The notes: a model not told the origin generated them from the sequence alone. A stretch of 64,000 bases of DNA from Macrostomum lignano (GCA_002269645.1 NIVC01001695.1:31246-95245), one strand, 5' to 3'. Positions 4,778 to 31,543 are shown, counted from the stretch's first letter. Program-made: numbers and translations.

Positions 4778-5675
4778 TGTGCCACAGCCCTGCCGCAGGC
4801 GGAGCGCCGGCTGCTTCTATTTATAGCATGCGCAGATCTAATTAGCATAATGAGGCAAAGGCCCTCAGTTGCTCTTGGACTTGAAGTGCTGCTGCTCTGG
4901 CATATCGAGAGTGGACTTCCGTTTCCTCCATGCCCGAAGGTGGCCAGGCATGGGGTGGAGAATCGAGGCCTGTCTGGGGAGCCGGGCAGCCTCCGCTGAT
5001 GATGCAGCAGTTTAATGCCTTAATTTGCATCTAGAACCTGCCCGAGCGACTTAATTAGCTTGTTATTTGTTGCTCACATGCGACGGTGCGAGTACGGCTC
5101 CAGTGCGTTCTGGGGACTGAGCGACTTAATGAGCTGCCTGTGAGGCCGGGGTCGCTTGTCTGCGTTTTGACTCGCCTCTCGTATGCTGACTGACCATGGG
5201 CCCCGTGTCTGCGGATGAATTTCTGCTTGCAGCTGACAGCTGCTGACCCAGCAACAAATCAATTTGCCAGCGAGCTGTCAACAGTTCCAGGCTTGGATGC
5301 ACTGGATAGACAGTTAAATATTCATAGCTGGTGTTGATTTTTACCACAGAATGAAAATAGGAATGCTACTCTCGTACAGGCACTTTCAGTAAAAACATCT
5401 GATAGAATCAGCTCAGTTTGACCAAGAATCACGTGGTGGGCTGCAGGAGCATTCTTATCATTCTTGACGTCATTTTTGCTATCTGGGGGGAGGGTACTTG
5501 CTATTGGGAGGGGGGGGGTGGTGATTGCTATCGGTGAGATGCATGATATCGGGGGATGCTTGATATCAGGGGGTGGGGTTGCTATCTGGGGGTGCTTGCT
5601 TTTGGGGGGATGCTTGCTATCTGAAGGATGCTTTTTTAGGGGGAATGCCTGCTATCTTTGTGAAGGCTTTATTTT

Positions 5676-5681
5676 GTTGTG
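5676..5681. repeat. Left target-site duplication GTTGTG of the Polinton
   Basis: Identical hexamer immediately follows the right end (23772-23777). Confidence 0.95.
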
Positions 5682-6011
5682 AGTAGTAGGTATTTGTACG
5701 CTTCTAGCCGTAGACAAACTATTTAAAACAGCATTTTTTAGGCTTAGAGGGGGGACACGGGGAAAAAAAACACATTTAACACCCATCCAACACCCCCAAC
5801 ACTCCCAATAATCAAAAACACTATTAACACATCCAATCAAATCCCCGTGTCCCCCCTCTAAGCCTTAAAATGCTGTTTTAAATAGTTTGTCTACGGCTAG
5901 AAGCGTACAAATACCTACAAATACACACAAACACACACAAACACACACAAACACTCTATAACCCGTCGCACGCGCCGCAGGCGCGAAGGGTCTTTTTCTG
6001 TTACTAAAAAT
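5682..6011 (+). repeat. Left terminal inverted repeat with internal ~77-bp inverted repeat (5686-5763 / 5842-5918)
   Basis: Reverse complement of 23439-23771 with a few mismatches; the internal arms are visible by eye. Confidence 0.95.
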
Positions 6012-6324
6012 GAACCGAGTTTACAACTTTTCAGTAAGCGATACTTTTGAGACCGTTGCTAAAAATGCAGAGATAATAAAACAGCACATATTGAATGGAA
6101 TAATTGATGAAGTTTATTTAAAATACGACGACAAGCACGAACTAAAACTTTATTCTTTAGAGTTAGATGGTTTGTATGATTTAGAACAAGAGGGTGAGTT
6201 AATATTTCAACTTGGAGATTATTTAAATTCCGAGGATTGGGAGGTTAGGTCAACAGATTCCGAATCAACAAATAGTTCTTATGAAACTAGCGATTCAGAT
6301 AATCAAAGTGAAATTTTTATGTAA
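6010..6324 (+). CDS. Polinton acidic hypothetical protein, 104 aa
   Basis: ATG in AAAAATG context at the inner TIR edge; acidic Ser-rich C-terminus. Confidence 0.6.
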   Translation: MNRVYNFSVSDTFETVAKNAEIIKQHILNGIIDEVYLKYDDKHELKLYSLELDGLYDLEQEGELIFQLGDYLNSEDWEVRSTDSESTNSSYETSDSDNQSEIFM

Positions 6325-6467
6325 AAAATGGAACAATATTCAATGCGCTTGATTCAATAAAAAAATTAATAAAGGATAAAATAGGAGAATTAGATTATAT
6401 ATGGGATAATGGGGAGCAAACTCTTCTTCTAGCACAATGTTTAAATTGTGAAAAAATAAACTAGAAA

Positions 6468-6875
6468 ATGATCACCGATTATTCCAACGGGTTTGTAAAC
6501 GATTGCACCAACGGTTCAATACCAACGGGAGCATCTTTTTTATCTGATAAAGCCAAAGATAATAAAGTAAAATATGATAAGCATCCAAATGAAAAAAGCA
6601 TTGGTACAAATACTATAATTGCTATTATTATACTAATCTTACTTAGTTGGATTATTTTTCCCGCTTTATTTTTATCTAAAAAATTGAATATCACGGGAAT
6701 ACCATATAATGAAAAAAATATAACATCCGCAATATTATCCATAGTTATATCAAGCACATTATTATTATTAATTCCACTAATTTTATTTTTTAGTATAATA
6801 TCAGCCGTGCTTTATGCTAAATGTTGTGAACGAAAACAAGAACTCCCCGACTCATTAGAGGCATTTAAAGTATAA
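6468..6875 (+). CDS. Polinton two-TM membrane protein, 135 aa
   Basis: Two long hydrophobic helices (IIAIIILILLSWIIFPALFL; AILSIVISSTLLLLIPLILFFSIISAVLY); AAAATG start. Confidence 0.65.
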   Translation: MITDYSNGFVNDCTNGSIPTGASFLSDKAKDNKVKYDKHPNEKSIGTNTIIAIIILILLSWIIFPALFLSKKLNITGIPYNEKNITSAILSIVISSTLLLLIPLILFFSIISAVLYAKCCERKQELPDSLEAFKV

Positions 6876-6877
6876 AA

Positions 6878-8487
6878 TTAAACTAACATTAATTGGCTTT
6901 CATAAAACGAACCCAATATTTCTTCACCGTCTTTATCAGCAATGATATAGGTTGTAGGATTTGTATTTAAAACTTTACTGACAGTAAATTTTTCACTTAT
7001 TTTCCAATATCCTTTTCTTCCCTTTTCAAACTTATCTTTCCATTTATAGATATAAACAGAATCACCAACTTTAAAAGGTTTAGTTTTCTTTTTTTCGAAT
7101 TCTCCAAAAGTAACTTTAACTTTTTCAGGACTGTTATAAGCTTGTTGTGGAGTCATATTTATAGCCGAATGATATGAATTATCTATCACTACGTCTGGTA
7201 ATATTTTTACCCACTTTTGGTTACCATTAAGACTAAATTGAAACCACAATTTCTTACCTAAAGTTCGATTAAATCTTTCTATTAAAGCGTTTTTGCTTTC
7301 GCCATAAATAGAATAAATCTTATTAATATACTCCCCATTAGCGACTCCGTCCAGTCCTTTTTCCTTTCTTGTTCTTTTTCAAAATGATATAATTTATACA
7401 TATGTGGATTGTAAAATTCCTTTCCTTCATCAACACATAAACGTTCACTTTTTTCTCCAAGACTTCTAAAAGCAGAAGCAACCTCCTCTCCTTTTTTGGA
7501 TTTCAAAGGAACAGCCCACGCATATCGAGTAAAACCATCTAATATGGTTAAAATATATTTATATCCCTGATCGGACGGCATAGCCATTAAATCAGCATAC
7601 CAAATTTCATTCTTTTTAAAGTTCATGATCTTTCTGTAAAATTTCGGTTTTCGGTATTCTTTGTGAAGAATCTTTGCCTCATCAGAACTTAACCCACCAC
7701 CACTTAATAACAAACACTCAACACAATTATTTCCATGTTGGTTGTAATTAATTCCCAAACCAAATTTAACTTTAGACTGCAAAATCTTTTTAACCATCCA
7801 CCGAGTTAATCTTTGGCTTACCGACAATCCTTGCAGATTATCTAATCCTTCAATCATTTTTCTATCGGCTTCATGCTTTAATCTTAATGCTTCCTCAGGA
7901 GAGTTCTTATCAGCATCTCTGTATGCTAAGTCATGATAATATGCTAACCAATCAATACCGTTAATGGGAATTGAATCTGCTTTTGGAGTGTCATCAGGAT
8001 TTAATCTCAAATCCAAGCGAGTCCCGGGTAGTTTACCCTCAATCTTTCGATAGAGGCTGGAGCACACCTTAAGCGGCTAAATTACCGCCCATCTCCGTCT
8101 GCTCTCTGAACCTTCTCCATATCGGCCACCGGACGGACTTAGGAGCTTGGCTGCGCATTGCCACCTTGTCTTCAAGCTTATTACCTTTGGGAAGAGGAGT
8201 TACCTCTGTTCCTTCAAAAGATTTCTCAATTGAAGTGGTACTTGAAGCTGTATGACGGGTTTCACGCAATTTGAAGATGTCGCCACTAATAGTGACTAGC
8301 AAGGACATTGACTTCCTCACTCAGGCCACGGATAACCTGCAAAGTTCATTGATGGAAGGTGTAGTTCCCCAGTATATTTTCCAGTAGTAAATATTGGCGG
8401 TAAGCTTGTTAATCCTTTTTGAACATCCAACAATCCACCTTCAAACACAACATGTATGGAATTAATATCGTTTGTTTGAATCACCAT
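6878..8487 (-). CDS. int: PLA2-domain / retroviral-type (rve) integrase fusion. Exon 1 8487-8335, group I intron 8334-8029, exon 2 8028-6878 with one frameshift near 7350-7380
   Basis: Spliced product reads MVIQTND...GELHLPSMNFAG|PGTRLDLRL...PINGIDWLAYYHDLAY (PLA2 Ca-loop GPG and HD dyad). DDE motifs WYADL, LCVDEGKEF and, after the frameshift, GESKNALIERFNRTL. SH3-like C-terminus FKVGDSVYI. Confidence 0.9.
8029..8334 (-). ncRNA. ORF-less group I intron, IC1-like, 306 nt
   Basis: P1 CAGGU/GCCUG with U.G at the 5' splice site. P2 AGUGAGGA/UCCUUGCU. P3 CAUCUUC/GGAGAUG. P4 UGCGUG/UGCGCA. P5abc with A-rich bulge GGUAAUAAGCU and GAAA L5b. P6a receptor CCUAAG/UAUGG. P7 GAGCA/UGCUC. P8 GGCGGU/GCCGCU. 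P9 CCUC-UAUC-GAAA-GAUU-GAGG. P9.0 AG/CU. Removal restores NFAG-PGT in frame. Confidence 0.93.
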
Positions 8488-9037
8488 TTTTAATGGCCTT
8501 AAAAATACATGATATCACTAATTGTTTTGCAAATTCTTCAATAGTTGGTTGTTTAACCCTTTTTGAAATATTATCTGCAGCAGCTAAGTACCTTTTATTT
8601 CTCCACCACTCAGAACATCTAACTTGGTTTTCATCTATATAATCATATGAAGAAGCGGGAATAAAAGGATCAACATGTAACACACCAGTATAATCTTTTG
8701 TGATGTAATAATGTTTTGTGAAATTTAACCAATCAATAAAGAATTCTTTTGTGCAATCAAGATAGAAAATATAATCATAATCATTAAAAATAGTTAATTG
8801 ATTTTTTACTCTATTTCTAATTAATACAATAAGTTTGTAGTTTTCATCATTTTGGTATTTGTTTCTACGATATTTATTCCATTTATCTTTATTGTTTTTC
8901 ATCCAAAAACTACTACTATTATTATGACATAATCGACAATCATTTCTAAAATTTTTTGAATCATTTCTCCAAATAAAAAATTCTTTAGTCATTGGTTTTT
9001 CTTCATGGCACTTATTACAAATCTTTTTAGTTATCAT
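8462..9037 (-). CDS. Free-standing HNH-type (homing-endonuclease-like) protein with N-terminal CxxC...CxxC zinc finger, possibly inactivated
   Basis: KICNKCHEEK...NDCRLCH zinc finger, then LHVDPFIPASSYDY...C...WRN...LAAADNISK matching the HIDHIIP...N...DN..K pattern of large-DNA-virus HNH proteins; the expected His after Asp is Pro. Confidence 0.75.
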   Translation of the reverse strand: MITKKICNKCHEEKPMTKEFFIWRNDSKNFRNDCRLCHNNSSSFWMKNNKDKWNKYRRNKYQNDENYKLIVLIRNRVKNQLTIFNDYDYIFYLDCTKEFFIDWLNFTKHYYITKDYTGVLHVDPFIPASSYDYIDENQVRCSEWWRNKRYLAAADNISKRVKQPTIEEFAKQLVISCIFKAIKNGDSNKRY

Positions 9038-9060
9038 TTTATAAAAAATAAATTTAACAA

Positions 9061-9744
9061 TTAAAGTCCAGTATGTCCGGCAGCTTTGGCAGCGGCTAAA
9101 ACAAGTTTTCGAGGAGTTTTTAAACCATCCCCAACAGCCCTTTTGTTTCTTATAGATTGATCGATATGCTTATACAAACTGGTGTTTTTAATAGCTCTAT
9201 CACCCAAATCAATATTATAAAATTTTTTAGCACTTATTAATTCATTCCGAGTATATAAATCAGGATTAAACTTTACTTTAGGCCTTGTAACAATATTAAA
9301 TGCTCCACCCAACTCTTTATATAATTCATCCCGACTTTTTTCAACCCTAGTACCAATTCGAAAATTGTCATTACCTAAATCTATCGCAGCAATACTTTGT
9401 GGCGCAGCTCTTGGAAATTGCTCAATATCACCACGACGTTCCGCAGCTCTAATCTCTGCAACTCTAAATTGTGCTTGAGCCACATTATAAGTAGGCGGTT
9501 CATCCTCCACAATTTCATCCTCTTTTGGCTCCGTATTCTTTGCAATTTTTTCAAGAAGTTCTTTATCAGTTTTTGTTAATTAACTAATTTTCCCCGTAAT
9601 AGGATTAATAAAAGGAGCAGCAAATTTTTCACCGGCTAGCTGTACTCCCAGCTTTCTTTTTTGTAAATCTCTAACAAAATCAGAATATCTTTGCTTCTCT
9701 TTATAAATCGCCAACTCCCCATCAACGTCCATAAACTGACTCAT
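9061..9744 (-). pseudogene. Polinton conserved/core protein (~227 aa) with premature TAA at 9580-9582
   Basis: AAAAAATG start at 9744, in frame with ORF 9061-9510 across one stop; C-terminal GDG-L site and LVLAAAKAAGHTGL tail. Confidence 0.6.
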
Positions 9745-9778
9745 TTTTTAACATAAAAAACTTTTTTAACCTATAAAA

Positions 9779-11259
9779 ATGGCCGAGACAAAAACCATTT
9801 GGAGTGATAAATTTCATTTCAAAAAACAACGACAGTATATTAATGAGGTCAGATCAAGAGATTTAAATTATACCCAACCAACAAGCGATAATTCAAATAA
9901 CTTTACAACGGGAACAGTAACTTTTGACATTGGTGCAACCACCAGCATATTGGATATGAAACATGCGTTTTTCCGAGTTAGGTGGTTGTATACCAGAAAT
10001 GATGGAACAGCCCTTACAGCTCCTGATATAGATGACAGAGCCGGCATTATTATAGAAAATGATTGGTTTTATAAATGTTTTTCCCAAGCACAACTAACCA
10101 TTAACGGAGCCGAGGTTGAGACGGTTACAAACCCAGCAGAGATTAATGGAGTTTTGAAACATTTAAATTATACATATTTATCAAAACAGGTTGGTGATAA
10201 CGTTGGATGGATGCCCGATAAGGGAGATGGTGGAGCAATAAATTTTCCCAATGTAGCACCAGCAGCCGGCGCAGATACCGCAGCTCTTATTAATTATTTA
10301 AATAATAATATAGTTCCGGTTGTAACAACCCTAACCAACACCAAAAATATGAACACCGGTTTTATAGACCGTCAGAATAAATTCCCAGTCGCGGTTTTAA
10401 CCACCGCAACCGCTTATGAGCAAGACTTTCAATCTTTCCACTATTTGGGTTCTTCTCACCAAATCGGGTATGGAAGGGATTAAAATTTGGGGTACGGTTG
10501 CAAATATCTAGTGGATATCTGCCCCGGATACTTTTTGGAAATTCAACCTCAACCGATATTGCAGTTCGAATTGTTTCGATTCAATTAGTTGTGCCAACTA
10601 TCGAGTTAACTGCTCCGCTTTTAAAACATATTGATGATCAGATAATGTTAGACCAGGATATATTTTATTTGAATCGCCGCCACTTTATGCGAACCATTAA
10701 TAACAATCAGGATTCATTCCAGTGGCAAATCTTACAAACAAAACGTCGGGTGAGGTATATTTTTATTTGGTTTAAAATATCAAACAGAAATAGCAAAAGA
10801 GGAAACTGTGATTTATATTGGCTTCAATCTGATGCCGTAGCAGCACAGGCAGCCACCGCAAGTGATAACGCGCTTTCGGCGATTAACGCATTTAATCTCC
10901 AGAATATCCGACTGCAGGTTGATGATCAATATTATCCTGTTAAAAGCCCGCTTAATCTAAATGTTGGAAATAATGATGTTAATGATTTTATAAAATATTA
11001 TCAGGATTACGTCAAAAACGAAGCCTACGCCATTCCTCAATATACACCCACAGAGTTTCTAAACATTCACCCCGTGGTTGTTTTTGATCTAACAGCACAG
11101 AAAGAAAATGTAGCCAATGTTGGTTTGAATTATATGTTGGAGATTAATAAAACCGGAAATCAGGCAGTAGACGCTCACGCATTGTTTCTAGAGGAATATA
11201 TGGCAATTGCTAAACCCGACGGCACCGTTGTTCAGGACGTCCCCATAGGAAAAAATTAG
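9779..11259 (+). CDS. Major capsid protein (double jelly-roll, hexon-like), one frameshift near 10430
   Basis: Two abutting ORFs join via IFPLFGFFSPNRVWKGLKFGVRLQI. Size ~490 aa, beta-rich, FSQAQLTINGAEVE and IRLQVDDQYYP segments, located directly upstream of ATPase and penton. Confidence 0.85.
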
Positions 11260-11278
11260 TTAAATTATTTCCTTAAAA

Positions 11279-12046
11279 ATGGTAAAGCCAAAACATAATA
11301 AAATATTTCCCAACGACCCTTTTCTTTTTTTGGTTGTTGGAGGATCAGGTAAAGGAAAAACACACTTTGTTTATGACTTATTAACAACTTATAAAATGTT
11401 AGATTATAATAATTTAATAATATATACAAACAAACCTAGAATAAAATATTATGAATTTCTTAAACATGGATTAAAAAACAAATTAAAAAAAGATATCTTG
11501 TTTAGAATGTTAAGAGCATATGAGCAATATGAGGACGACGATGAACCAAAATTCAAACTTTGTGACATTGAGGGTTTATGTAGAGAAACTGCGCAGCATC
11601 CAGAAAACGTCGACAACAACTCCCCAACGATCCAAATATCAAACAGATTAACCTATGATCAAATCCCAAAAGATGATAAAACACTAATTGTATTTGATGA
11701 TTGTATTAATGATGGTGATCAAAAGTTGCAAAAAGAAATTTTTGTTAGCGGTAGAGGAGATGGAATTGGAGCTTTTTATCTCACTCAATCCTTTAGAGAA
11801 TTAGATTCAATTATAAAAAAGAATGCAAGTTGTTGTGTAATGTTTGATCTAGATAACTACGATTTACAAAGTATACATGCGAGATTTAACCCAGGTTTAG
11901 ATCCAAAACCATTCAAAAGCATGTGTAAAAAAATTTGGGATGACAACCAATACAAACACATATATATCAACCCTAGGTTAGAAAGGAGAAATAGAATCTT
12001 ACAAAATTTGATACACGAGGAGGAGGAAGAGGAGGAAAAGGAATAA
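11279..12046 (+). CDS. A32/FtsK-like DNA packaging ATPase
   Basis: Walker A GGSGKGKT, Walker B LIVFDD, GRG motif, FYLTQSF. Confidence 0.93.
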   Translation: MVKPKHNKIFPNDPFLFLVVGGSGKGKTHFVYDLLTTYKMLDYNNLIIYTNKPRIKYYEFLKHGLKNKLKKDILFRMLRAYEQYEDDDEPKFKLCDIEGLCRETAQHPENVDNNSPTIQISNRLTYDQIPKDDKTLIVFDDCINDGDQKLQKEIFVSGRGDGIGAFYLTQSFRELDSIIKKNASCCVMFDLDNYDLQSIHARFNPGLDPKPFKSMCKKIWDDNQYKHIYINPRLERRNRILQNLIHEEEEEEEKE

Positions 12047-12093
12047 TCGCCCCGAAGGGTCGCGTACCTTTGGTACGATTCCCACCTATAAAA

Positions 12094-12879
12094 ATGGCAG
12101 TGAACCTCGATACAATAAAACAAGTGGTTGATAGAACCAACTCAAAATTTAGTACAACCCTACAATTTGTAATGACTAGCAGCGAGCAAAGGATTCAATT
12201 ACGTAACCCACTAACTCTTGATCAGACATTAAGTTATGAAATTGGTTTAATAATGTATTCAGTTTTTAACATGCCTCAATTGATTAATGCAACAAACAAT
12301 CAATTTAGATATTCTAAAGATTCAGGAGCAAATTGGACAACTATTACTATAACACCCGGCGCATATAACTATACTGATTTGAATACCGTAATGCAAGCTG
12401 AGTTAACAGATAATGGTGATTGGGTAGCAGACGCAATTGTTATAGGAGTTGATTTACCATCAGGCAGATTCACACTTACATTAGCGGCCGGTTATCAGGT
12501 TGATTTTACAATTGCCAATTCACTTAGAACCATATTAGGATTTAATTCCCGAATCGTTACCGCATCAACCACGGGCGATACCGTGGGAAATATTGAAGGC
12601 GGAGTCAACACAATTAATATTGCAACCGATATTTCAAATGGTGGTTATATAACAGATGATAACGGATTTTTGGTTCAGCGCGGAATTATATATTCAATTC
12701 CATTTCTAGCGGTTCCAATTGGAGATAAAATGATAGTTGCACCTCAAACCCCAATATATTACCCATTAAATCAATATAATTTACAATCAATTTTTATAAG
12801 AGTTGTAGATGATTCGGATCGACTAATAAGTTTTGGTGGACAAGCAATAACAATAATTTTAAGAATAAAACAGGTTTAG
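12094..12879 (+). CDS. Minor capsid protein (penton-like single jelly-roll)
   Basis: TATAAAAATG start; ITITPGAYNYTDLN, INIATDIS and IFIRVVDDSDRLISFGGQAITIILRI resemble Polinton minor-capsid patterns. Confidence 0.85.
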   Translation: MAVNLDTIKQVVDRTNSKFSTTLQFVMTSSEQRIQLRNPLTLDQTLSYEIGLIMYSVFNMPQLINATNNQFRYSKDSGANWTTITITPGAYNYTDLNTVMQAELTDNGDWVADAIVIGVDLPSGRFTLTLAAGYQVDFTIANSLRTILGFNSRIVTASTTGDTVGNIEGGVNTINIATDISNGGYITDDNGFLVQRGIIYSIPFLAVPIGDKMIVAPQTPIYYPLNQYNLQSIFIRVVDDSDRLISFGGQAITIILRIKQV

Positions 12880-12889
12880 AATCTTAAAA

Positions 12890-13498
12890 ATGGGTAATAA
12901 TAACGCTTTAAAAAAACAAATGGTAAAAGTTCAAAAAGCAAAAGATAATTATGAAATCGAATTAACAAAATTGAAACATCTACAAGCGGAAAAAATCAGG
13001 CGGGAAATATTACAACCCACAGATAAGAAACTAACAAAAACAAAGAGTTTTCAGAAGCATAAAATGACTATGAGCTGGAATGAGTTCAAACAAAGATATG
13101 GAACGGATGCAACAAGTAATATTGAATTAACAAATTGGGCGAGACAATTAAAAATAAAACCGTTCAGATGTGTTATGCGCGATGAGATAAAAGACTTACA
13201 ACAATATGGATCTTTCATTGTCAATATTGAAACGACAAAATAAAATGGTGTACATTGGTCAGCAGTTTATTCAAAACCCAAACTCGTTTATTTTTTTGAT
13301 TCATATGCCCTTCCTCCATTGCAGGAAATAAAAGACAAATTTAACCACACTAAAAATCGATTATGTGGAGATTATCACGAACAATTTCAAACCTTTGATA
13401 AAAGTTATTGTGGGCAGGCGGCGTTGTATTTTTTATATAGAATCGAACAAAGTTCGCGTACCCCAGAGGATTTTAAAAACATATTGGATTCATTTTAA
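12890..13498 (+). pseudogene. Adenain-like cysteine protease, premature TAA at 13241-13243 (alternative start 13064)
   Basis: In-frame continuation past the stop gives NGVHWSAVY, YFFDSYALPP and QFQTFDKSYCGQAALYFL (His/Asp/Gln/Cys motifs). Confidence 0.88.
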
Positions 13499-13521
13499 TA
13501 TGGTAAAAATAGACTCTGAAA

Positions 13522-15511
13522 ATGTTATTTAGTGGAACACCCTCATGGAATGGAACTTCAAGTACTGGTGGTGGCGGATCAAGTGGAGGAATCAGTGTTA
13601 CATTTGGAGACAACCGATATATAAATGAAGATGAAGGATATAAAAAAACAGAAATAGATAATAAATTAAATTTAAAACGGAATGTTGCAGATTCCATACC
13701 AAAACTCAAGTCGATAATTCATTAAATTTAAAACGCAATACCGCCGATTCCTGTAGCAAGACGGATATTGATAATTCATTAAATTTAAAACGGAATATAT
13801 TAGATTCTTATAGTCAAGCCGAAGTTGATTCCGAACTTAATTTGAAACGGAATGTGGCAGATTCATATACAAAAACGGAGGTTGATAACTCATTAAACTT
13901 GAAAAGAGACATAACCGATTCTTATTCCCGAACAGATTCTGATTCGCGTTATGTTCAAACCACCGCAACCGGCACCTTAGATATGAGTAACAATCGAATT
14001 ATAAATGTTTCAATTACAACAAACAACTCGGTAGTCGATAAGAACTATGTTGATAATCAAATTGGTACTCGTACTGGTAATATAAATATGAATAATTTTA
14101 AATTAACAAATTTGTTATTTGGAACAGAGGACACGGATTCAGTCAATCTCGAGCAAGTAAATGCACGAGCAAATATAACCGATGATGATATTTTTAACAC
14201 GCCTCTTACATCAAATACTTCAAATCCCGATGTTATTCTTACAGCTTCTGAAAATAACAATGAAGCTTTTCGAGTTGGTGACGGAAGTCTTGCAACACAA
14301 TGGTCACCAAATACCGGTACCACAACCAATATGGAAATTAATTTGAGTTTTTAGGCTATAATCGAAGAATAAATGAATTAAGAGTTACGGGCAGCCCAAC
14401 AATTGATATCCCATCGGGATGGTCGGTGCGTGCAAAAAATGTTGCTACAGACGCGTGGACTGTATTACGAACATCATCCTCACCAATTCAAGCAACTTCA
14501 TTAGCATTAACTAATTTAACAGTTAATTTTTGGAAATATTATAGCGTTTTATTCCCAACCGGTGGGACAGTTACACAACCTATTGAAGTTCGTCTAATTC
14601 AATTATTTGAACACCGAGTTGAAGTTCAAGATCTCAATTGGCCAAATCAAGTACTTTCTGCCACTCCGCGTGCATATGTAGATCAATTAGCAACCCCAAC
14701 TTCAAATGGTAGAATGTCTGCTGGTGATAAAAATAAATTAGATGGAATTCCTGCAATTGATGCCGCATTATTCGAGCCAGTAATTTGCAATTGGACTGGA
14801 TATCAAAATCCAACAACCGCCGGAGATATATATCCAGTGGGAACTTTAATTGGTGACGCCACATATGTTGATTATCAAAACGGAGCTAGAATAACTCGCG
14901 AAACCGCTGGAGTAAGTGGCGCTTTACAATTTAATTTTACACATTTTCAAAACATTGCTGCGTCCTTCTTTTTCCGAGTTGCTAATAGTGGTGGGGATGG
15001 TGCGGATGCAGTTTGGTTTTATGCATATTGTCATGAACGACCTACTAGTGAATTTGGTAGTAGTTTAACAACCGACGCTGGTCTGATAGTGTTTGCTAGT
15101 GAATGGACAGATCGGTTTGGTGTGGTTTGGAGTAATAAAAAAGCAGATGGAACCACAGTTCGTAATGATGTTCAAAATGACGCCGACCAAACAGTAACCT
15201 ACGCTAATATTGATAATGACGATTGGCATCTTTTTGAAATTAATATTATTAATCAAAGAGTTTGGTATCAATTAAGGTCATACAATTTTTCAACTAAAGC
15301 ATATACACTAATTGGGAAAAATGTTTTTACATATGATAGTGGAACTTGGGGAACTTTAGATAAATCTGGAACTCTTATGGGTTTTGGTGCACGAACCTGA
15401 GGAGCGGATGCTGCACATTTTATTCGAGGCGCTGCTGTTTGTGGTAGCACATCTGCGGGATATAATTTTGCTGCCAGTGCATATCTGGAAGAGCCGCCGG
15501 TAGCAATATAA
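13522..15511 (+). pseudogene. Putative virion fibre / receptor-binding protein (~660 aa): 19-aa repeats, discoidin-like and L-lectin-like domains; two frameshifts and one TGA
   Basis: Five YxKTEVDNxLNLKRNxxDS repeats (~13640-13950), NINMNNFKLTNL stalk motif, F5/8C-like AFRVGDGSLATQWSP...RINELRV, GRMSAGDKNKLDGI, and lectin-like GGDGADAVWF and GFGART(G)GA..HFI. Confidence 0.65.
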
Positions 15512-15527
15512 AATATTGTTATATAAA

Positions 15528-15857
15528 ATGGCTTTTAGTAGAACTCCATCAATGCGACAATGCAATAATATTGTTATTCCGATTCCCAAACAAGAATCAA
15601 ATATAAAAACTTTTAAATCTCATACCAAAATTTTATTTAGCGGAGTGAATGTTCAAGACAATAAGAAACTTCAGGAATTAATTAAATTATTAAAAACCCA
15701 TATTATATTACAGGAGTTTTGGAAGGTTGGATTTAAATGGGAGAAAAAAGAAAGAATAACTCCAATCCAATACTTATTGAGCGCTGGACAGATTCCTAAG
15801 GAGCGTGGGGAATTCATTTTGGTGTTATTAAAAATAGACGAAAATTTCGGTGTCTGA
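15528..15857 (+). CDS. Polinton hypothetical protein
   Basis: TATAAAATG start, ~109 aa, overlaps the next gene. Confidence 0.55.
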   Translation: MAFSRTPSMRQCNNIVIPIPKQESNIKTFKSHTKILFSGVNVQDNKKLQELIKLLKTHIILQEFWKVGFKWEKKERITPIQYLLSAGQIPKERGEFILVLLKIDENFGV

Positions 15858-16494
15858 AGCAGACAGAAAAGAGCGCGACCTATTTAACCAACGTAAAGGG
15901 CGCATGTTAAGTAATGTCGATCGAATTAATTATGATTATGATTTATATACCAAAAAAGTAAGAAGGCTTTCAAACCATATCAGGAATATGGATTTTTTCA
16001 ATATTGGTTTTGGAAGTTTATCGATGTTGTGTGTGATCGTTTTAGGTATTTTACAATCCATTCCAACTCTTAATTTATCTCAATTATTTTTGGGTATTTC
16101 AATTGGTTCAATATCAGGTTTTGAATTAATAAGAAACTTATCAATACTTTTGGCAATTAAATTATATCTTAAAAAAAGAAAGGATAAATATAAATCACTA
16201 AGAGATGTTGCTAAACAATATAAAAATCAGTTATATTTATATGTGCAAAAAATATTAGATGATGGTGAGATTACAATACATGAGTTAACAACCGCGGTTG
16301 AGTTATATGATAAGTATTTAAAAGATAGAAATAGAATTTTAGATATTGAAGCTTTTACCGATATGGAATTGAAAGAATTGCGTTTGGACGCCCCCAAACC
16401 TCCGCCTATAGAAACTATAGAATACAAGTCCGAAGTTATGGCTGATGGGGTACAAAGCCCGCGATCAGGTAGCACTATAGAACTTCAGGTCTGA
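15850..16494 (+). CDS. Polinton two-TM protein with helical C-terminal domain
   Basis: Hydrophobic hairpin FFNIGFGSLSMLCVIVLGIL / LFLGISIGSISGFELIRNLSILLAI followed by ILDDGEITIHEL. Confidence 0.7.
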   Translation: MSEADRKERDLFNQRKGRMLSNVDRINYDYDLYTKKVRRLSNHIRNMDFFNIGFGSLSMLCVIVLGILQSIPTLNLSQLFLGISIGSISGFELIRNLSILLAIKLYLKKRKDKYKSLRDVAKQYKNQLYLYVQKILDDGEITIHELTTAVELYDKYLKDRNRILDIEAFTDMELKELRLDAPKPPPIETIEYKSEVMADGVQSPRSGSTIELQV

Positions 16495-16550
16495 CTTAGT
16501 CAGCGAACCTTGGTTCGGTGGTGTAATTTATTAAAAATATATTCTAAAAA

Positions 16551-16835
16551 ATGGATCAAGGAATAATACATAAAGTTAAAGTTAAAGATAAAATCCTTTT
16601 TAAAATGTATTCTGTCCAAGATATAAATATATATACTAAAACTTCTAAAAAATATGGGTGGCCGTGTTATATTTTTGGAACTTATTTAATTATTAATTAT
16701 ATAAAAAACCTACTTGCTCTTCCAAAAAGAAGAATGCCGGAGTATATCCAAGACGAATTCGATGCGCGTAAAGCTACATCTGATATTAAAAGTGTGGAAA
16801 TAATTAATTTAGAGAGTTTAAGAAATTCTATGTAG
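16551..16835 (+). CDS. Polinton hypothetical protein, 94 aa
   Basis: AAAAAATG start, ORF track. Confidence 0.5.
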   Translation: MDQGIIHKVKVKDKILFKMYSVQDINIYTKTSKKYGWPCYIFGTYLIINYIKNLLALPKRRMPEYIQDEFDARKATSDIKSVEIINLESLRNSM

Positions 16836-17080
16836 ACCCATCTGTAGCTTTTTTAATGCATAAGTTATATATTCTTCCCACAATGGTAATTGCCTTTTGA
16901 TTCGTGGTTCGAATTTTTTATCAATACATAAAAATTCCAATGACTTTTTCAATAACATTTCGCTTGGGATGTTGCCCAGTCTTATATGTTTTGTGTTCTC
17001 TCTCATAAGAAAATTGAAATAATATTCAACCAGAGTTAAAATCCTCTCGGCGTCTTTCGAACTTAATCCTTTTCCTTTAT

Positions 17081-17356
17081 TTAAATGAAAAAAGTTATTA
17101 TATAAATAAACAGTATTTCCGGGGATGGTATTAATTTGTGTGCCGTCTGGCTTTGAAGGGATGGATGTGAAATGTCACATGATAAATTTCTTATAATTGT
17201 GTTTTTGAAATAGTAATATGAGTTTTCAATCTTTTTTGTTTTTTCAAATTGATATATCTTAGCGCATGAATAACACATGTGGTATATTTCTCCATTTGCT
17301 GTTTGACCTCTCTGCATAGTAACATTACATTTTTTACATTCATATCTGTCTTTCAT
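17081..17356 (-). CDS. Small zinc-ribbon protein
   Basis: YECKKC...MCYSC CxxC pairs; AAAAAATG start. Confidence 0.55.
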   Translation of the reverse strand: MKDRYECKKCNVTMQRGQTANGEIYHMCYSCAKIYQFEKTKKIENSYYYFKNTIIRNLSCDISHPSLQSQTAHKLIPSPEILFIYIITFFI

Positions 17357-17382
17357 TTTTTTGTTATTTTTTTAGACTAAAA

Positions 17383-17712
17383 ATGGAAAAAGAAAATCGG
17401 TTCAAAACTGATTCTAATGCAATTAATTTTCTAACCACCAATTCTCTGGAACCAAAGGAGTATGATATAATATGTTTGCGACAGGTTAAATTTATTGGAA
17501 TTCAATCGATATTTTTACAATTAAACGGGGGAGTCGTTCTGTGCTTAAGTGGTGATGATGCTAAAAATTTTCCAACAATTGTTATAAATAAACCTAAAAC
17601 TTTTATTATGAAATACTCACGAATGGATGGTTTGCAATTTAAAGAAAGACAAGCAAAAAACAAAAAGGTTGATAGGACTGTAAAATTAGCCGCTGTTTGG
17701 GAGGAAGACTAA
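17383..17712 (+). CDS. Polinton hypothetical protein, 109 aa
   Basis: CTAAAAATG start, ORF track. Confidence 0.5.
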   Translation: MEKENRFKTDSNAINFLTTNSLEPKEYDIICLRQVKFIGIQSIFLQLNGGVVLCLSGDDAKNFPTIVINKPKTFIMKYSRMDGLQFKERQAKNKKVDRTVKLAAVWEED

Positions 17713-17727
17713 ATTTTTTATAAGAAA

Positions 17728-18084
17728 ATGGCGAGCGTAAAAAACCTTCTGTGCACTCACAATAAAGAAATGAATGATATTAATAAAAAATTAAATATAA
17801 TTAACGAACAGAAATATAGTGATTATGGCGACGATATGTTTCCGATTCGATATGAATTAGAAAAAAGAAAGCGTTTTATTATAAAAGCAATTGCTTATGC
17901 TGAAACTATTATTGAACAAGAGATCGACCGTCTTGTTAGACGAATAAAAATACTTCGAAAAAAAGTAAAAGAGTGTTTAAGTTACCCTGCCGATTGTGAA
18001 GATAATTGGTGTTCAATAAAATATGAAATGGAAATGGATATTCTACTTAAGGAATTACATGCTTTAGTTTTTTGCCGTTATTAG
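17728..18084 (+). CDS. Polinton helical hypothetical protein, 118 aa
   Basis: AAAATG start; converges on the pPolB 3' end. Confidence 0.5.
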   Translation: MASVKNLLCTHNKEMNDINKKLNIINEQKYSDYGDDMFPIRYELEKRKRFIIKAIAYAETIIEQEIDRLVRRIKILRKKVKECLSYPADCEDNWCSIKYEMEMDILLKELHALVFCRY

Positions 18085-21000
18085 TTTTTCCGTTAATCTC
18101 TTCCAGTTATCCAAGACTTGTTCCTTTTTTAATTTTTTAAATTCTTTTGGAAATGTTGCATAATAATTTTCTATGTCTTTTTCATATTCTAGATATGTAT
18201 TATATTCATATTCACATTCGATCGGAAACCGCGTTCCGATGGAAAGATCGTCCTCGCAATCACAATCGTAATGGTGATTATTTATTGACTCTTTGTATTC
18301 TTTATATCTGCTTATTAAATACTCATCTTGTTTTTTATCTTTTATCATGTTTTTAATTTCTTCTTTTAAACCATATGGATATGTTTTAATTTTATTATCT
18401 AAATACCTTTTATCATCAAATGGGCTTAATGTTTTTTTTATCAGTCTCAATAACAAACATCTGATGATTATCTGAATTTAATCGATATTGTGGAGCATGA
18501 TATTTTTCAATTGTACGAGTATTAAGGGATTATTAATCATTAATCTAATAATGCGTTTTTATAATCAACAAAAGTTATCTTTTTAACTGCTGCCCTTGAT
18601 ACTCCTTTTTTTTACCTCTCCCTCCTGTCCTAAAACCTTAAATGCATAACATTTTGATCTTATTGCTATAAACTCGGTTATGATTTTGCTATTTAATTCA
18701 TCTTTCATTTTAAGTACAACTTTCTTATTTTTATCAGATTTTAGAGGATGTTTATCCGGATAATCAGAGGTGTCCAATGTATCCTTAATTGTTTCCATAT
18801 CTTTATAGACGTCCTCAGTTTCAACCTTAAATACCAAACTGTCGGTGTCTGCATATATTGGATAGTTATCTGGCCAAGTTTTATTTATAACATCATAATA
18901 GTATTCATACATTACTAGCTTTGCATAATCTAAAACAACCATTCCAATAAAGATTGGTTTAAGAAATTTTGTTTTTTATTGCGCATATGTATTCCCATAA
19001 ATTCATCATCAAATTTTATAAAGTCTTTAAAGTTAGGTTTGGTCAAATATTTCTTTGCTTTTTCAATATCCTTTTCTAAATGGAATTGGGTTCTATCTCT
19101 AATATTTTCAACCGTTTTTCCATAAAATGCATTATTCATTAATTTCCAATAATCTTTCTCAAAAGTTGTTTTTGCCATCTGTCTCTGATTTGAATTAAAA
19201 TCAATATATTTAGCTAACCAATCTTCTTCTATAAATGATATTGTTCGATGTACTTTGGTTACTTTTAGTCCTTGCTTTTCATAAAATTGTAGAAGCTTAT
19301 AATGCACTACATAGTTTTTCTTATCAAATAAATTTAGAATTAGCTTCTTTGTTGCTAGATGTTTTGAATTATCTGCTTTAAGATAATCTTTTTGTGTTTG
19401 TGATAAATCATCTTCATTAACTGAACAATGCTCTGGAGCTAGAGGATATTTATATGTTGCTGCTTTTGCTTGCCGAGTATATTTTAAATCTACTTTCACT
19501 ATGCATCCCCTTCCTTTGGGAATGTTTTTATAATAATTGGGATTGTATTCCCACCGGAAATCGGTAATTGGTAATTTTTGTTTCATACAGCCTCCATATA
19601 AATTGTTTGCATCTAGATATAATACATATGATGATTTTTCTTTTTTATTATAATTAGGTAGATACTTATTATTTACTTTAGTATATCTATCTCCTAGTAC
19701 CCCTGAGAATCCCCCGCGAATTCCACGCTCAATCATTAACAACATATCATGATCAGTTAGTAAATCAATTTTTACATCTGTATGTTTTAACCCGCATGCC
19801 CATGTTAATCCGGGTGCACTGAAACAATAGGCTGGATCAATTTTAAACTTCTCGTATGTATGATTCCTAAAGTTTTCAAACGCATCAGCTAACAGGAGAA
19901 CATCTGCTTTAAGATATAGGTTATGATAATCTTTAAAAGTTTTACAATCAAAGTATTTCCATACTTTTTGTGCATGTTCATAATCCGATTCGGATATGTT
20001 AGATTGTGATAATATTGAATAAAACTTTTCGATTGGGGGTAGTTGAGTATCATTAAATACCTTTTCAGATGTTTCATATTCATATGGATAAACGCCCTTG
20101 CGAGTTAATAGTATTAGTTCTTCCTCGGATAGTTTTTCCTTTTTAAATTTATTTAATAGTATTGGAAAGTTTTTCTTTATTGTTTCTAAGTCCCATGGTT
20201 TTGGAACTAATGATGAAACAACATTCGCTAGGGAGGTTGATAAGAATCTCAAGGAGTCTAGAAAAACCAGATGGGAATATTTTTTACCATATGTTATTGA
20301 TATGTAATTTTCTGATGTTTTTGGTAAAATATTTACTTCATATTCATCCTTACCTAAGTGTAGTAATTCTCGAACAAGGAAATGACAATCATAGCCAGAA
20401 CCATTATGAAAAAATACTGGTATTTCCTTATATCCTTTTCCTTCTTTTGTGTGACATGATCTACATGCTGCCCCGCGATAAATTCCTGTTAGATAACAAT
20501 GCTCTTTTATCTTATTCTTATCACTTAATTCCATTTGACATAGAAAACAATTTGTTGCATTCTTATGGTTATATTTTTCTTTTTCTGTCATAATAATATA
20601 TTTTGATAATTTACAATATTGATTTTGAATATATTTTAAATACATTAACCAATGATTCTACCATATGTTTCGCCGAGTCCATACCATGATAAGTAATTAT
20701 CTTTGATTTAAAAATATGATCTGCTGCAGAATGTACATATATAGAATAACTATTTGGATACTGTTGTGCCAATTTTTTTGTGCAGTCGCCCTGAAGGGTC
20801 GCGGACTCCGTCCGGTCACCCAATGGAACATTGGTTGCTTCAAAATCAGCATATATTACAATTGATTTTTTAATTGACATATAATGTTGTTGGAACTTTA
20901 AGATTTTATCTTCACCATATGGCATTAAAACCTTAGTAAATTTATGATCTAAACAAAATATTTGATGCTTTTTAAGAGCTGTTTCATCCCTTTTAAATGT

Positions 21001-22034
21001 GAAACAGTTTCTACATAATTGCATTCTATTTCCATTTTCTCTTAAAAAAGAGCTAATATCTTTTATGTATATATAATGTGTTTCATTTCCGCGCTGCATA
21101 TACAAAAGGTCGATTTGATCTGGTGCTGTTATATCAGTTGCTGGCTTTACTAAATAACATCTTTTTTTATACCAATCTTTATCGCCAATTGGAATTTCTT
21201 CTGGCTCTTCAATTGTAAATACATTAATATTTAATCCATTCATTTTTTTCAATCTTATATATATCATCAATGGCTACTGGGTATGATATGTTTTTCATTA
21301 TTATTTCATCCTCATATTTTCTATAATTATATATTTCATTAACATGGGATTTTACTTGTTCATGATATTTATGAATTAATAAACACCATAATAAACACTT
21401 ATTATCTTTATTGTCTGGATTTATAATCATTGGTGATTTAAAGCCGAGGTTCATATAAGATCGTTCTCTAAGAATTTCTATGGGTACAATCTTTACTGTG
21501 GCTGAATTACAGGATACAAATATAAACCCTGATCCATTTTCTGTCATCTTATCTATCCATTCATCAAACTCTGCTTCTATTTGATCAAATTGATTGTCGT
21601 AATTTCTCATTGATAGGAGTCTTATATGATTCTTGTGAAAAGTTATTTATTACTTCAATTTCTGAATTTGCATTAATCATATTTGGTTTTTTAAATTCTG
21701 TTTCAATTTCTATTTTATACTTAATTGGCTGTCGTTTGTTATTTGATCTTTTAGTATATCTATCTAGGATGGTCTTTAATTTTGGTTTCATTTGTTTAAA
21801 ATATTCTTTATAATCAGTATTTATTTCAATATCTATATTTATTACTTCAGCTCCATTTTGTCTTTGTGGTTGAGGTTTATCAATATCATTTAATTGTCTT
21901 TCTAAACGCATCTCATTTTCTGCTCTGACTCTAGCTTCTATTTCCGCCCTATTGGCCATTCGTTGTGCTTCTATTTGAGCTATTAATTGTGCTCTAAGTT
22001 CTGGGTTGTCGATTTGGGCTAAAATAGCTTCCAT
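18064..22034 (-). pseudogene. polB: Protein-primed family B DNA polymerase (pPolB), ~1300 aa, split by about six frameshifts
   Basis: Exo I VIYADFE, Exo II VFFHNGSGYDCHF, Exo III YLKADVLLLAD, Pol A YLDANNLYG, Pol B KLMNNAFYGK, Pol C YADTDSL, C-terminal LSPFDDKRY, internal C/H zinc motif CFLC...HC...ACRSCH. Confidence 0.95.
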
Positions 22035-22064
22035 TTTATAGAATAAAATTTATACAATGTTTAC

Positions 22065-23018
22065 CTACTCGAGTTCCGCTTTTGGTAAAATTAATTCACT
22101 GCCTGAGACATTTGCATTTAAGATGATGCCTGATCCAGCTTTTGGTCTCATTTCAAGATATAAACCGCTTCCGTCGTGCTTTTCAATTATGTTAAAATCT
22201 TTTCCTAATTTGTTAAAAATCTTCTGAACAGCTGGCCTAAAATTGGCTCCGATATTGTCAAAAAATCCTTTAGCTTTTTCACCCGTTTTTTTTAAGGTTT
22301 GACCAAACTCATGTAATTTATCTGCTACAACTCCGCTTCCGTGGGTTTTTCCTTGTAAGATTAAACCCTTTCCAGCTGCTAACCTAGCTTCTGCATTTCT
22401 TTTTTGTTCTGCTGTTGCCGAGCTACTATTAATGGTATCGATCAGTTTTTGTTTAAATTGAGCATCCTGTGTTATTTGCTGTCTTTGGAATTCAGCCTCT
22501 CGTTTGGCTTTTTCATCCGCAGCTTTTTTGTCATTTACTGCTTTTGCAATTCCAGCCGCTCCACCTGCTACTCCACCAGCTGCTCCGATTCCCGCAAAAA
22601 TTATTGGGAGCAAAGTTGCAAGTGGAAGTATACCCCCCTGTTTTAATTTTAATTCTCCTAGCTGTTTTCGATTATCGTGAATTCTTTTGGCTGCTAAACC
22701 GGTTGCTCCAGCTGCTCCGAGTCCTAAAAGAATTGGTAGAATGGGCAATAATCCACCATCCTTTTTAGTGTGAGTCTCCAATAAAAATTTCACATCAGAT
22801 TCTGTTAACCTATAATTTTTATCATTATTCTTAAATGAAACTGGCCTTCCTTCTTGTGCATATTTTGCAGCAAGTTTAAAAGTATCAAAATTATAATCCA
22901 ATTTTTTACCTAATCGATCTAATCTTTTTAACATTGTGTGACTGTGTTTACTATCATCCAAGTTTAAGGTGTCTACTATTTCTCCTATAAAATATAACCG
23001 ATCGTTGTCCGAGTCCAT
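22065..23018 (-). CDS. Virion core/maturation protein with two adenovirus pX-like GG-(L/I)LP hydrophobic repeats
   Basis: KDGG-LLPILPILLGLGAAG and KQGG-ILPLATLLPIIFAGIGAAGG resemble adenovirus pX GG-FLPALIPIIAAAIG; several GSG-hydrophobic sites. Confidence 0.7.
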   Translation of the reverse strand: MDSDNDRLYFIGEIVDTLNLDDSKHSHTMLKRLDRLGKKLDYNFDTFKLAAKYAQEGRPVSFKNNDKNYRLTESDVKFLLETHTKKDGGLLPILPILLGLGAAGATGLAAKRIHDNRKQLGELKLKQGGILPLATLLPIIFAGIGAAGGVAGGAAGIAKAVNDKKAADEKAKREAEFQRQQITQDAQFKQKLIDTINSSSATAEQKRNAEARLAAGKGLILQGKTHGSGVVADKLHEFGQTLKKTGEKAKGFFDNIGANFRPAVQKIFNKLGKDFNIIEKHDGSGLYLEMRPKAGSGIILNANVSGSELILPKAELE

Positions 23019-23028
23019 TTTTATATTA

Positions 23029-23430
23029 CTAAAACTTCTTTAATCCTTTTCCGCCTTTAATGCTAGTTAATACTTTATTAAAATCTTGGATATCTTTATT
23101 ACTTATTGGGTTGCTTTTAGTGGCTGTTTCAGTAGGTTGTGCGGCTTCTTGTGCTAATTTTAAATCTTTTATTGCTTTTATTTGTGAGAGGGTGTCGTTA
23201 AATTCTCTCAATTTTTTAAGTTCCTCAGCTGCCCTAGCCGCTTCTATTCCACCCTTTACCGCATTGGTTATAGAGCCTGCTGTCGAGCCTGCTTGTCCTA
23301 TCAAGCCCATATTATCTTTAACCAAATTTGCTGCTGATCCTATCATATCAAAAAGACCCTCACCTCGGTATTCAACTGGGTCTCCTACTTGCAATTCATT
23401 CAGATTGGATAGTTGGGTAACATGTGTCAT
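23029..23430 (-). CDS. Small virion protein with amphipathic helix after GEG-LF
   Basis: YRGEG-LFDMIGSAANLVKDNMGLIGQAGS; C-terminal GGKG-LKKF; starts next to the right TIR. Confidence 0.6.
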   Translation of the reverse strand: MTHVTQLSNLNELQVGDPVEYRGEGLFDMIGSAANLVKDNMGLIGQAGSTAGSITNAVKGGIEAARAAEELKKLREFNDTLSQIKAIKDLKLAQEAAQPTETATKSNPISNKDIQDFNKVLTSIKGGKGLKKF

Positions 23431-23438
23431 TTTTGTCT

Positions 23439-23771
23439 ATTTTTAGTAACAGAAAAAGACCTTCGCGCCTGCGGCGCGTGCGACGGGTTATAGAGTGTTT
23501 GTGTGTGTTTGTGCGTGTTTGTGTTTTTGTAGGTATTTGTACGCTTCTAGCCGTAGACAAACTATTTAAAACAGCATTTTAAGGCTTAGAGGGGGGACAC
23601 GGGGATTTGATTGGATGTGTTAATAATGTTTTTGATTATTGGGAGTGTTGGGGGTGTTGGATGGGTGCTAAATGTGTTTTTTTGATTTCCCCCCCGTGTC
23701 CCCCCTCTAAGCCTTAAAATGCTGTTTTAAATAGTTTGTCTACGGCTAGAAGCGTACAAATACCTACTACT
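23439..23771 (-). repeat. Right terminal inverted repeat with internal inverted repeat (23529-23604 / 23692-23767)
   Basis: Reverse complement of 5682-6011. Confidence 0.95.

Positions 23772-25126: not shown

Positions 25127-31543
<6,417 letters not shown>

Follow-up and report, generated by a model that had tools for sequence, protein, structure and literature searches.

A group I intron of 306 nt, with an IC1-type fold and without an open reading frame (ORF), interrupts a phospholipase-A2 (PLA2)-like/integrase gene carried by a Polinton/Maverick element in the nuclear genome of an animal, Macrostomum lignano. It lies at 8029..8334, minus strand, of the window, i.e. the whole stretch of 64,000 nucleotides analysed (GCA_002269645.1 NIVC01001695.1:31246-95245), and its last base is an A. 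The reading preferred here, which we regard as rather probable, is that of a virus-derived intron, spread by homing, that splices despite this terminal A.

With the Rfam model RF00028 the intron reaches 61.4 bits against a cut-off of 50, at E 4.8e-15, but only in a scan by E-value: an Rfam scan of the whole window with the fast filters gave 0 matches, to the intron or to any rRNA, so that standard filtering overlooks such introns. Both splice sites are fixed by intronless alleles, because these are contiguous exactly at the point of insertion, between a Gly and a Pro codon; with the same alleles as reference, removal of the intron restores the host reading frame. The target CAGGU|CCCGG, the halves of which lie at 8339-8335 and 8028-8024 (minus strand), had been read from the guide sequence in the original prediction and is borne out by the intronless alleles. 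That prediction placed a Tetrahymena-like P4-P6 domain, captured from a protist or fungal rDNA intron, at 8090-8290; the strings it named were all located at or beside the positions given for them, on the minus strand, and the motifs stand, but the feature is larger, running from 8334 to 8029. It was also right in seeing an IC1-type group I intron in a virus-derived gene; the A at the intron's end, the number of copies, the nuclease and the animal nature of the host had escaped it.

With Tetrahymena numbering and helix names, as we take them to apply here, helices P1, P2, P2.1, P3, P4, P5, P5abc, P6, P6a, P7, P8, P9.0 and P9 can be drawn, all on the minus strand. In P1 (8322..8339), the exon end CAGGU (8339-8335) pairs with the guide GCCUG (8326-8322), and a U-G pair is found at the 5' splice site in 53/53 distinct copies. 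The P2 and P2.1 hairpins (8282..8320) follow, the P2.1 region being the one in which a sister intron carries its nuclease ORF. The P4-P6 domain (8110..8272) comprises J3/4 AAU, P4, P5, P5abc and P6/P6a, with the A-rich bulge GGUAAUAAGCU at 8185-8175, the GAAA loop of P5b at 8225-8222, P5c at 8207-8193 and the tetraloop receptor made up of CCUAAG (8143-8138) and UAUGG (8121-8117). The P element occupies 8272-8260 and the Q element 8159-8138; each of the bulge, P, Q and R strings occurs a single time in 128 kb of both strands. The catalytic core (8059..8106) contains P7 (8104-8100 / 8064-8060), the 3' strand of P3 and P8, and P7 has a bulged A, and its guanosine site is a canonical G-C in all 53 distinct copies. 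The last part of the intron (8029..8058) is formed by P9.0 (8058-8057 with 8031-8030), a GAAA-capped P9 and the terminal A. P9.1/P9.2 are absent and, therefore, so is P13; the P13/P14 peripheral contacts are a Tetrahymena-type feature. The criteria for subgroup IC1 include an extended P5 (P5a-P5c) with an A-rich bulge, J3/4 AAU, GC/GU pairing in P6 and a bulged A in P7 (PMC3699495); the intron shows every feature given in that source, terminal G excepted.

The fold is conserved across the family. Pairing was scored in 53 distinct sequences out of the 67 copies and holds in 97% of helix cells (4433 of 4558), a figure that is favoured by the definition of the helices on the window copy, and changes on both strands of a helix are seen in P2, P3 and P9, those in P2 representing one haplotype swap. 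Free-energy folding alone does not set the intron apart from shuffled sequence (z -1.0; 13 of 100 shuffles fold equally well). The intron (mean p-distance 0.06) varies less than the synonymous sites of the exons (0.14-0.36). The bulge and receptor that had been called Tetrahymena-like are present in the window copy, but they are not family traits: among the 67 copies (three unscored for each feature), the bulge reads AUAAG in 1, ACAAG in 36 and AAAAG in 27, and the receptor strand reads UAUGG in 12 and UAAGG in 52. Thus, the most Tetrahymena-looking details, i.e. the exact bulge and the exact receptor strand, are copy-specific. An extra hairpin of ~30 nt lies between P5c and the A-rich bulge in 12 of the 67 loci (L040, L047 and L084 among them), and the same hairpin is found in the sister intron described below.

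The host element, ~18.1 kb in length and AT-rich (5682..23771), is a Polinton/Maverick, as follows from its terminal inverted repeats (AGTAG...CTACT), the perfect target-site duplication of 6 bp, an rve integrase, an A32-type packaging ATPase (11279-12046), a capsid-like ORF (10498-11259, an Atlas lead, domain searches having given no capsid match) and ORFs with polymerase motifs. The latter (18583-21270) are taken to be the polymerase on the basis of family-B motifs; no Pfam polymerase domain was matched by the ORFs of the window. The putative polymerase of this copy carries an endonuclease-VII-like domain. The polymerase (18930-21270), capsid-like (9779-11259) and integrase (6878-7340) genes are each split over several frames, and the terminal repeats (23529-23767 and 5673-5931) hold internal inverted repeats of 65-76 nt. 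Outside the Polinton, host glutaminase and ankyrin exons are found among long simple repeats at 25127-29480, minus strand. Together with 86 Wnt matches genome-wide, they identify the host as an animal.

In the interrupted gene, a PLA2-like domain (PF08398) is fused to an rve integrase. Exon 1 (8335..8487, minus strand) has 51 codons, PF08398 being matched on an intronless allele with E 2e-07; exon 2 (6878..8028, minus strand) encodes the remainder of the PLA2-like domain (PF08398, E 0.002) and the integrase (rve, E 1.3e-07). In the window copy, the frame of exon 2 is open for 248 codons and is broken in the integrase part. None of the eight PLA2 homologues that were read gave any indication of an intron at this position.

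The genome (764 Mb) contains 141 matches to the core (Q) motif of the intron and 24 to a second core (type B) at the same insertion site, as well as 23 intronless junctions (one degenerate; three from the subfamily of the window and the rest from a second subfamily), with the proviso that assembly haplotypes may be counted twice in this census. Integration of the Polinton would have put the intron at more than 160 chromosomal places. Around the site, 90 loci were examined (30 retrieved by similarity to the intron and 60 of 150 scored exon-1 matches), of which 86 were classified as type A (67), A2 (3), type B (13) or intronless (3), the remaining ones being L038, L059, L077 and L083. Type A2 is an 880-nt sister intron of a second Polinton subfamily (L088-L090, L465-L470), with 13 full-length matches at 95% identity or more; core identity is 82%, with one clade at 100% support, and it has a more usual P7 and a terminal G in 3/3 loci. 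Type B (L036, L060, L074, L080 and nine more) has P2, P2.1 and P5abc in common with type A and a different core, with GCA in J6/7 and a bulged C in P7; RF00028 found no match in 5/5 type-B loci scanned, and type B does not fit the IE criteria as given in PMC3699495. It looks like the product of a core swap. Its 3' site is ambiguous, as there are two in-frame options, one of which removes two codons of the PLA2 loop. From one intron type to the other, the exon end and the guide change together.

In L002 and L003 the intron is 98% identical to that of the window and exon 1 only 63% (protein), a sign of mosaic exchange between copies. At L038/L456, an intronless copy of the gene is preceded, 744 nt upstream, by an intron-bearing exon 1 that is truncated and has another P1 loop; this P1 loop also turns up in the loose ends of two runs. 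In L037, P8 of a type-B intron is interrupted by ~830 nt of foreign sequence, probably a host transposon, with short repeats on either side.

Nuclease genes accompany the intron in two arrangements. In the A2 intron, the P2.1 region holds a nuclease ORF that matches RE_Eco47II, of the PD-(D/E)XK family, above cut-off, and the frame of which runs on through P3-P6; the frames of three environmental homologues of the nuclease (P0001, P0002 and P0006) likewise continue into sequence resembling a ribozyme. The window intron itself lacks a nuclease ORF, and in other copies the Eco47II-like family is encoded free-standing just upstream of exon 1 (~64-68% identity). In the window, this position is taken by a free-standing HNH/endonuclease-VII-like ORF (8462..9037, minus strand; PHROGs endonuclease VII, E 3.8e-05; Atlas HNH cluster, 0.90), to which Pfam HNH gave no match. 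Across 86 loci, with flanks of 1.2-1.5 kb, the slot upstream of exon 1 is filled by the HNH-like gene in 60, by the Eco47II-like gene in 22 and by neither in four (three of them A2), and never by both. The case for the HNH-like neighbour as mobiliser of the intron is weakened by its presence beside 3/3 intronless alleles of the window's subfamily as well. No match to the PLA2 gene or the nuclease was obtained in annotated phages.

As to the origin of the intron, the original prediction took the P5abc domain, with its bulge and receptor, as a pointer to an rDNA donor, an argument that loses its force when viral introns are considered. The Q motif was found in at least 122 stretches of viral contigs and a P7 pattern in 114, the carriers being RPB1, capsid and VLTF3 genes of giant viruses. 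The A-rich bulge is present in 136 of 175 distinct viral introns. The exact receptor was counted in 79 of them, and together with the bulge in 60, receptor counts that run too high since half of the receptor was part of one of the search patterns; P5abc, bulge and receptor are common in giant-virus introns and, therefore, not specific to rDNA. The nearest sequences are giant-virus RPB1/VLTF3 introns (68-73% over 206 columns, 69% for the window copy), and the only rDNA intron retrieved (L222) ranks 122nd of 134 with 57% identity. These comparisons are biased towards viruses, consisting of two viral motif scans seeded with the intron's own motifs, one metagenome scan and one rDNA comparator. The metagenome scan, with the bulge and Q motifs, returned 117 stretches, of which 28 are introns; two of the latter loci (one distinct intron) are in SSU rRNA. 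Ribosomal DNA assembles poorly in metagenomes. A P7 variant, GAGCA, shared with 4 of the 175 viral introns, was set aside as proof of a viral donor, the P7 of the sister being different.

Core phylogeny, which had been proposed as a check, answers in part. In a tree of 60 sequences, reduced from 135 distinct cores of 177 extracted and leaving aside the type-B introns and the cores with long insertions (L338, L355, L393), the Polinton introns are sister to three or four viral-contig introns with bootstrap 84-93, the sister branch having a support of 93/78 and no star. The viral neighbours are thus recovered, but a constraint to an rDNA sister is equally likely (lnL -8411.6, versus -8410.9 with viral neighbours; two constraints, two seeds each), and its p-AU is 0.8, in a test based on an unconstrained search by which better trees were overlooked. 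L222 groups strongly (100/87), on a long branch, with a metagenome intron (L231) located among protein-coding frames, which hints at exchange between rDNA- and virus-type introns.

Direct capture, by reverse splicing into a viral mRNA, of an IC1 intron from the rDNA of a protist or fungus would account for the IC1 features and for the equal likelihood of the constrained trees. It can also draw on the P5/P5a hinge, which presumably resembles that of Tetrahymena and the pattern of which was found in 0 viral contigs, and on an SSU rRNA site, ACAGGU|CUGUG, in L222. This site, ending in CAGGU, is assumed here to be S1199. S1199 is an established intron site, although its introns are IE and not IC1 (PMC3699495). 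The search for a matching rRNA site, suggested in the original prediction, thus found the CAGGU half, but the 3' exon differs, and the 5-nt match is at chance level because CAGGU occurs five times in that 2.3-kb locus. The low rank of the rDNA intron and the scarcity of rRNA locations in the metagenome scan also count against such a capture; in addition, the reverse-splicing route lacks direct experimental evidence (PMC3984707), and the nuclease-bearing sister offers a route by DNA homing instead. Acquisition straight from rDNA is, on balance, improbable, and a viral intermediate together with DNA homing is the better reading of these sequences, although the viral intron family as a whole may, at greater depth, descend from rDNA introns. 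Further facts that count against the preferred explanation are that neither the nuclease nor the PLA2 gene has a close relative in viral contigs (one weak locus, 34%), and that the integrase frame of the window copy is broken.

The second peculiarity of the intron is its 3' end. Group I introns normally need a terminal G. Here the last base (8029), placed by P9.0 and by the intronless alleles, is A, as are 84 of 113 type-A intron ends genome-wide, the other 29 being G; the A ends are surprising because the G-binding site in P7 is canonical. P9.0 is intact in 84/84 A-ended copies and altered in 12/29 G-ended ones (about three events). A stronger P10 as compensation for the terminal A was rejected, since P10 is weaker in A-ended copies (-4.2 versus -6.8 kcal/mol in G-ended ones). 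On the intron tree the end state is scattered, with nine changes (12.5 on average after shuffling), and it is linked to the first codon of exon 2 (34/40 versus 2/17 distinct).

That the intron is nonetheless removed in vivo is inferred from selection on the exons. Read-through from unspliced RNA stops within 0-8 codons in 83/83 scored intron-bearing loci, and codons 1-57 of exon 2 contain no Met in 57/57 A-type loci tested; the PLA2 part of exon 2 is, nevertheless, under purifying selection, with pN/pS 0.07 behind A ends (24 distinct) and 0.07 behind G ends (9 distinct). Base -1 is U in 83/83 scored intron-bearing loci and C in 21/23 intronless junctions, a difference that co-conversion could also explain.

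Alternatively, the intron may be viral and only the G-ended copies splice, the A-ended majority, that of the window included, being defective in the second step, copied in trans and refreshed by recombination. This possibility carries some weight, although we consider it unlikely. Terminal G is described as essential for the second step (PMC3679873, PMC6545197), and the nine changes of end state, as well as the linkage of the end to the first codon of exon 2, are what recombination predicts. Moreover, pN beside the junction is slightly higher in A-ended (0.040) than in G-ended copies (0.008), and no spliced junction was seen in the contigs of 4/4 runs (4 of 24 runs, their RNA status being guessed) for one A-ended copy (L010), both unspliced junctions of which are spanned by those contigs. 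The latter test is insensitive, in that known intronless DNA alleles did not appear as joints either. On the other side, A is the prevailing end and P9.0 is kept in every A-ended copy; the full-length frame of exon 2 is as frequent in A-ended (29/47) as in G-ended loci (10/18); and the ten codons directly behind the terminal A are rich in synonymous variants (pS 0.50, pN 0.04). Furthermore, ND5-717 of hexacorals, the sole precedent found for A-ended splicing in the sources available, ends in A and has its exons correctly ligated, over 70% remaining unspliced (PMC6545197). Splicing of A-ended copies only with help, either from a host or viral protein stabilizing the second step or from A-to-I editing that would turn the terminal base into a G mimic, would reconcile the canonical G site with the terminal A, and some nuclear IC1 introns do require host factors (PMC8395846); however, no A-to-G difference appears at the terminal base among the run-contig rows listed, and such assistance is quite improbable in our estimate. 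Removal by the spliceosome, or the persistence of a decayed and functionless relic, is highly improbable: there is a GU two bases upstream of the group I site, and CAG is the end of some copies, but, by hand count, no AG in the vicinity is in frame with this GU, and core helices that are 97% paired with two-sided changes, in an intron less variable than synonymous exon sites, speak against a relic.

According to the preferred explanation, that of a virus-derived and homing-spread intron still able to splice, an IC1-type intron of the sort that eukaryotic DNA viruses commonly have in their protein genes would have entered the PLA2/integrase gene of the Polinton, most likely from another virus. 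It would then have spread by DNA homing through the Eco47II-like PD-(D/E)XK nuclease, presumably specific for this site, up to near-saturation of the U-type sites and subsequent loss of the ORF. The nuclease would thus still be inside P2.1 in the sister, the window's subfamily having no intron ORF and a nuclease gene beside exon 1, and Polinton integration would have carried the intron into the many chromosomal places where it is found. From established group I chemistry (PMC3679873), P1 is expected to set the 5' splice site at the U-G pair, which would be attacked by the guanosine bound in P7, and P9.0 and P10 to position the 3' splice site for ligation even with a terminal A, the second step being probably slower. 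Splicing would be needed for translation of the PLA2 part and probably of the integrase too. A bolder version, put forward tentatively as possible, has the introns catalytically active in mRNA transcribed from animal chromosomes to which Polintons delivered them, with the terminal A as a selected brake on the second step that limits integrase and phospholipase. The genome would, in this version, have kept successive stages at one site, i.e. the nuclease in the intron, the free-standing nuclease, the ORF-less intron, a second core sharing the peripheral domains, and resistant intronless alleles.

These findings bear on the known distribution of group I introns. Reviews confine the nuclear ones to rDNA of microbial eukaryotes (PMC3679873, PMC8395846), and a database of 2025 limits animals to placozoans, corals and sponges, mostly in mitochondria (PMC11835236); more than 160 core matches are now seen in an animal nuclear assembly, within a protein gene. 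No report of group I introns in animal Polintons or animal nuclear protein genes was found in a search that covered few subscription journals. If spliced, the intron would be a ribozyme at work in animal nuclear mRNA, of relevance to the absence of such introns from animal nuclear genes. Because A- and G-ended alleles occur naturally on a near-identical ribozyme, the part played by the terminal G can be tested directly, and an Eco47II-like nuclease present both in the intron and free-standing nearby would be a eukaryotic-virus case of a proposed route of mobile-intron formation.

In viruses, group I introns were already known from giant viruses (PMC5871332) and protist polinton-like viruses (PMC12220804). 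The latter likewise have RF00028 introns, of ~300-380 nt, in endogenous Polinton-like elements, as far as described only in Rhodomonas, Paulinella and Desmodesmus and in a short gene that precedes the one for the capsid; the intron reported here differs in lying in a PLA2/integrase gene in an animal, in ending with A and in having a nuclease-bearing sister. Giant-virus introns, such as those in polr2a/polr2b of Bodo saltans virus, have the same P2.1, P5abc, Q-P6a and R motifs and, as here, occur in nuclease-bearing and ORF-less forms that interrupt an essential viral gene (PMC5871332); they are, however, found in RNA polymerase, capsid and VLTF3 genes, with HNH or GIY-YIG nucleases, whereas the present element integrates into the chromosomes of an animal and the nuclease is Eco47II-like. 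The rDNA IC1 introns of the Tetrahymena Tth.L1925 type (PMC3679873, PMC3699495) share P5abc with the A-rich bulge, the GAAA loop and the receptor, J3/4 AAU, and the bulged A and G-C of P7, whereas the window intron is outside rDNA, lacks P9.1/P9.2 and a His-Cys nuclease, ends in A and differs in the sequences of P5b, P5c and P7. In a comparison by eye with Tetrahymena P5abc (PMC13420581), agreement is confined to AGUACCA, the bulge and the GAAA loop, the P5b/P5c stems and the three-way junction being different. Phage collaborative homing, in which an ORF-less intron is mobilized by a free-standing nuclease, and nuclease invasion, here mirrored by a family that is in-intron in the sister, were shown in phages (PMC3984707), the present case being known from the gene arrangement alone. 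Hexacoral ND5-717 is likewise a group I intron with terminal A in an animal mRNA, with ligated exons shown; it is mitochondrial, giant and back-spliced, with a fixed A (PMC6545197), whereas the present intron is nuclear, 306 nt long and found with coexisting A and G alleles. The weight of the finding lies with the nuclear position in an animal, the A at the end of the intron and the way in which its nuclease genes are arranged, and not with a capture from rDNA.
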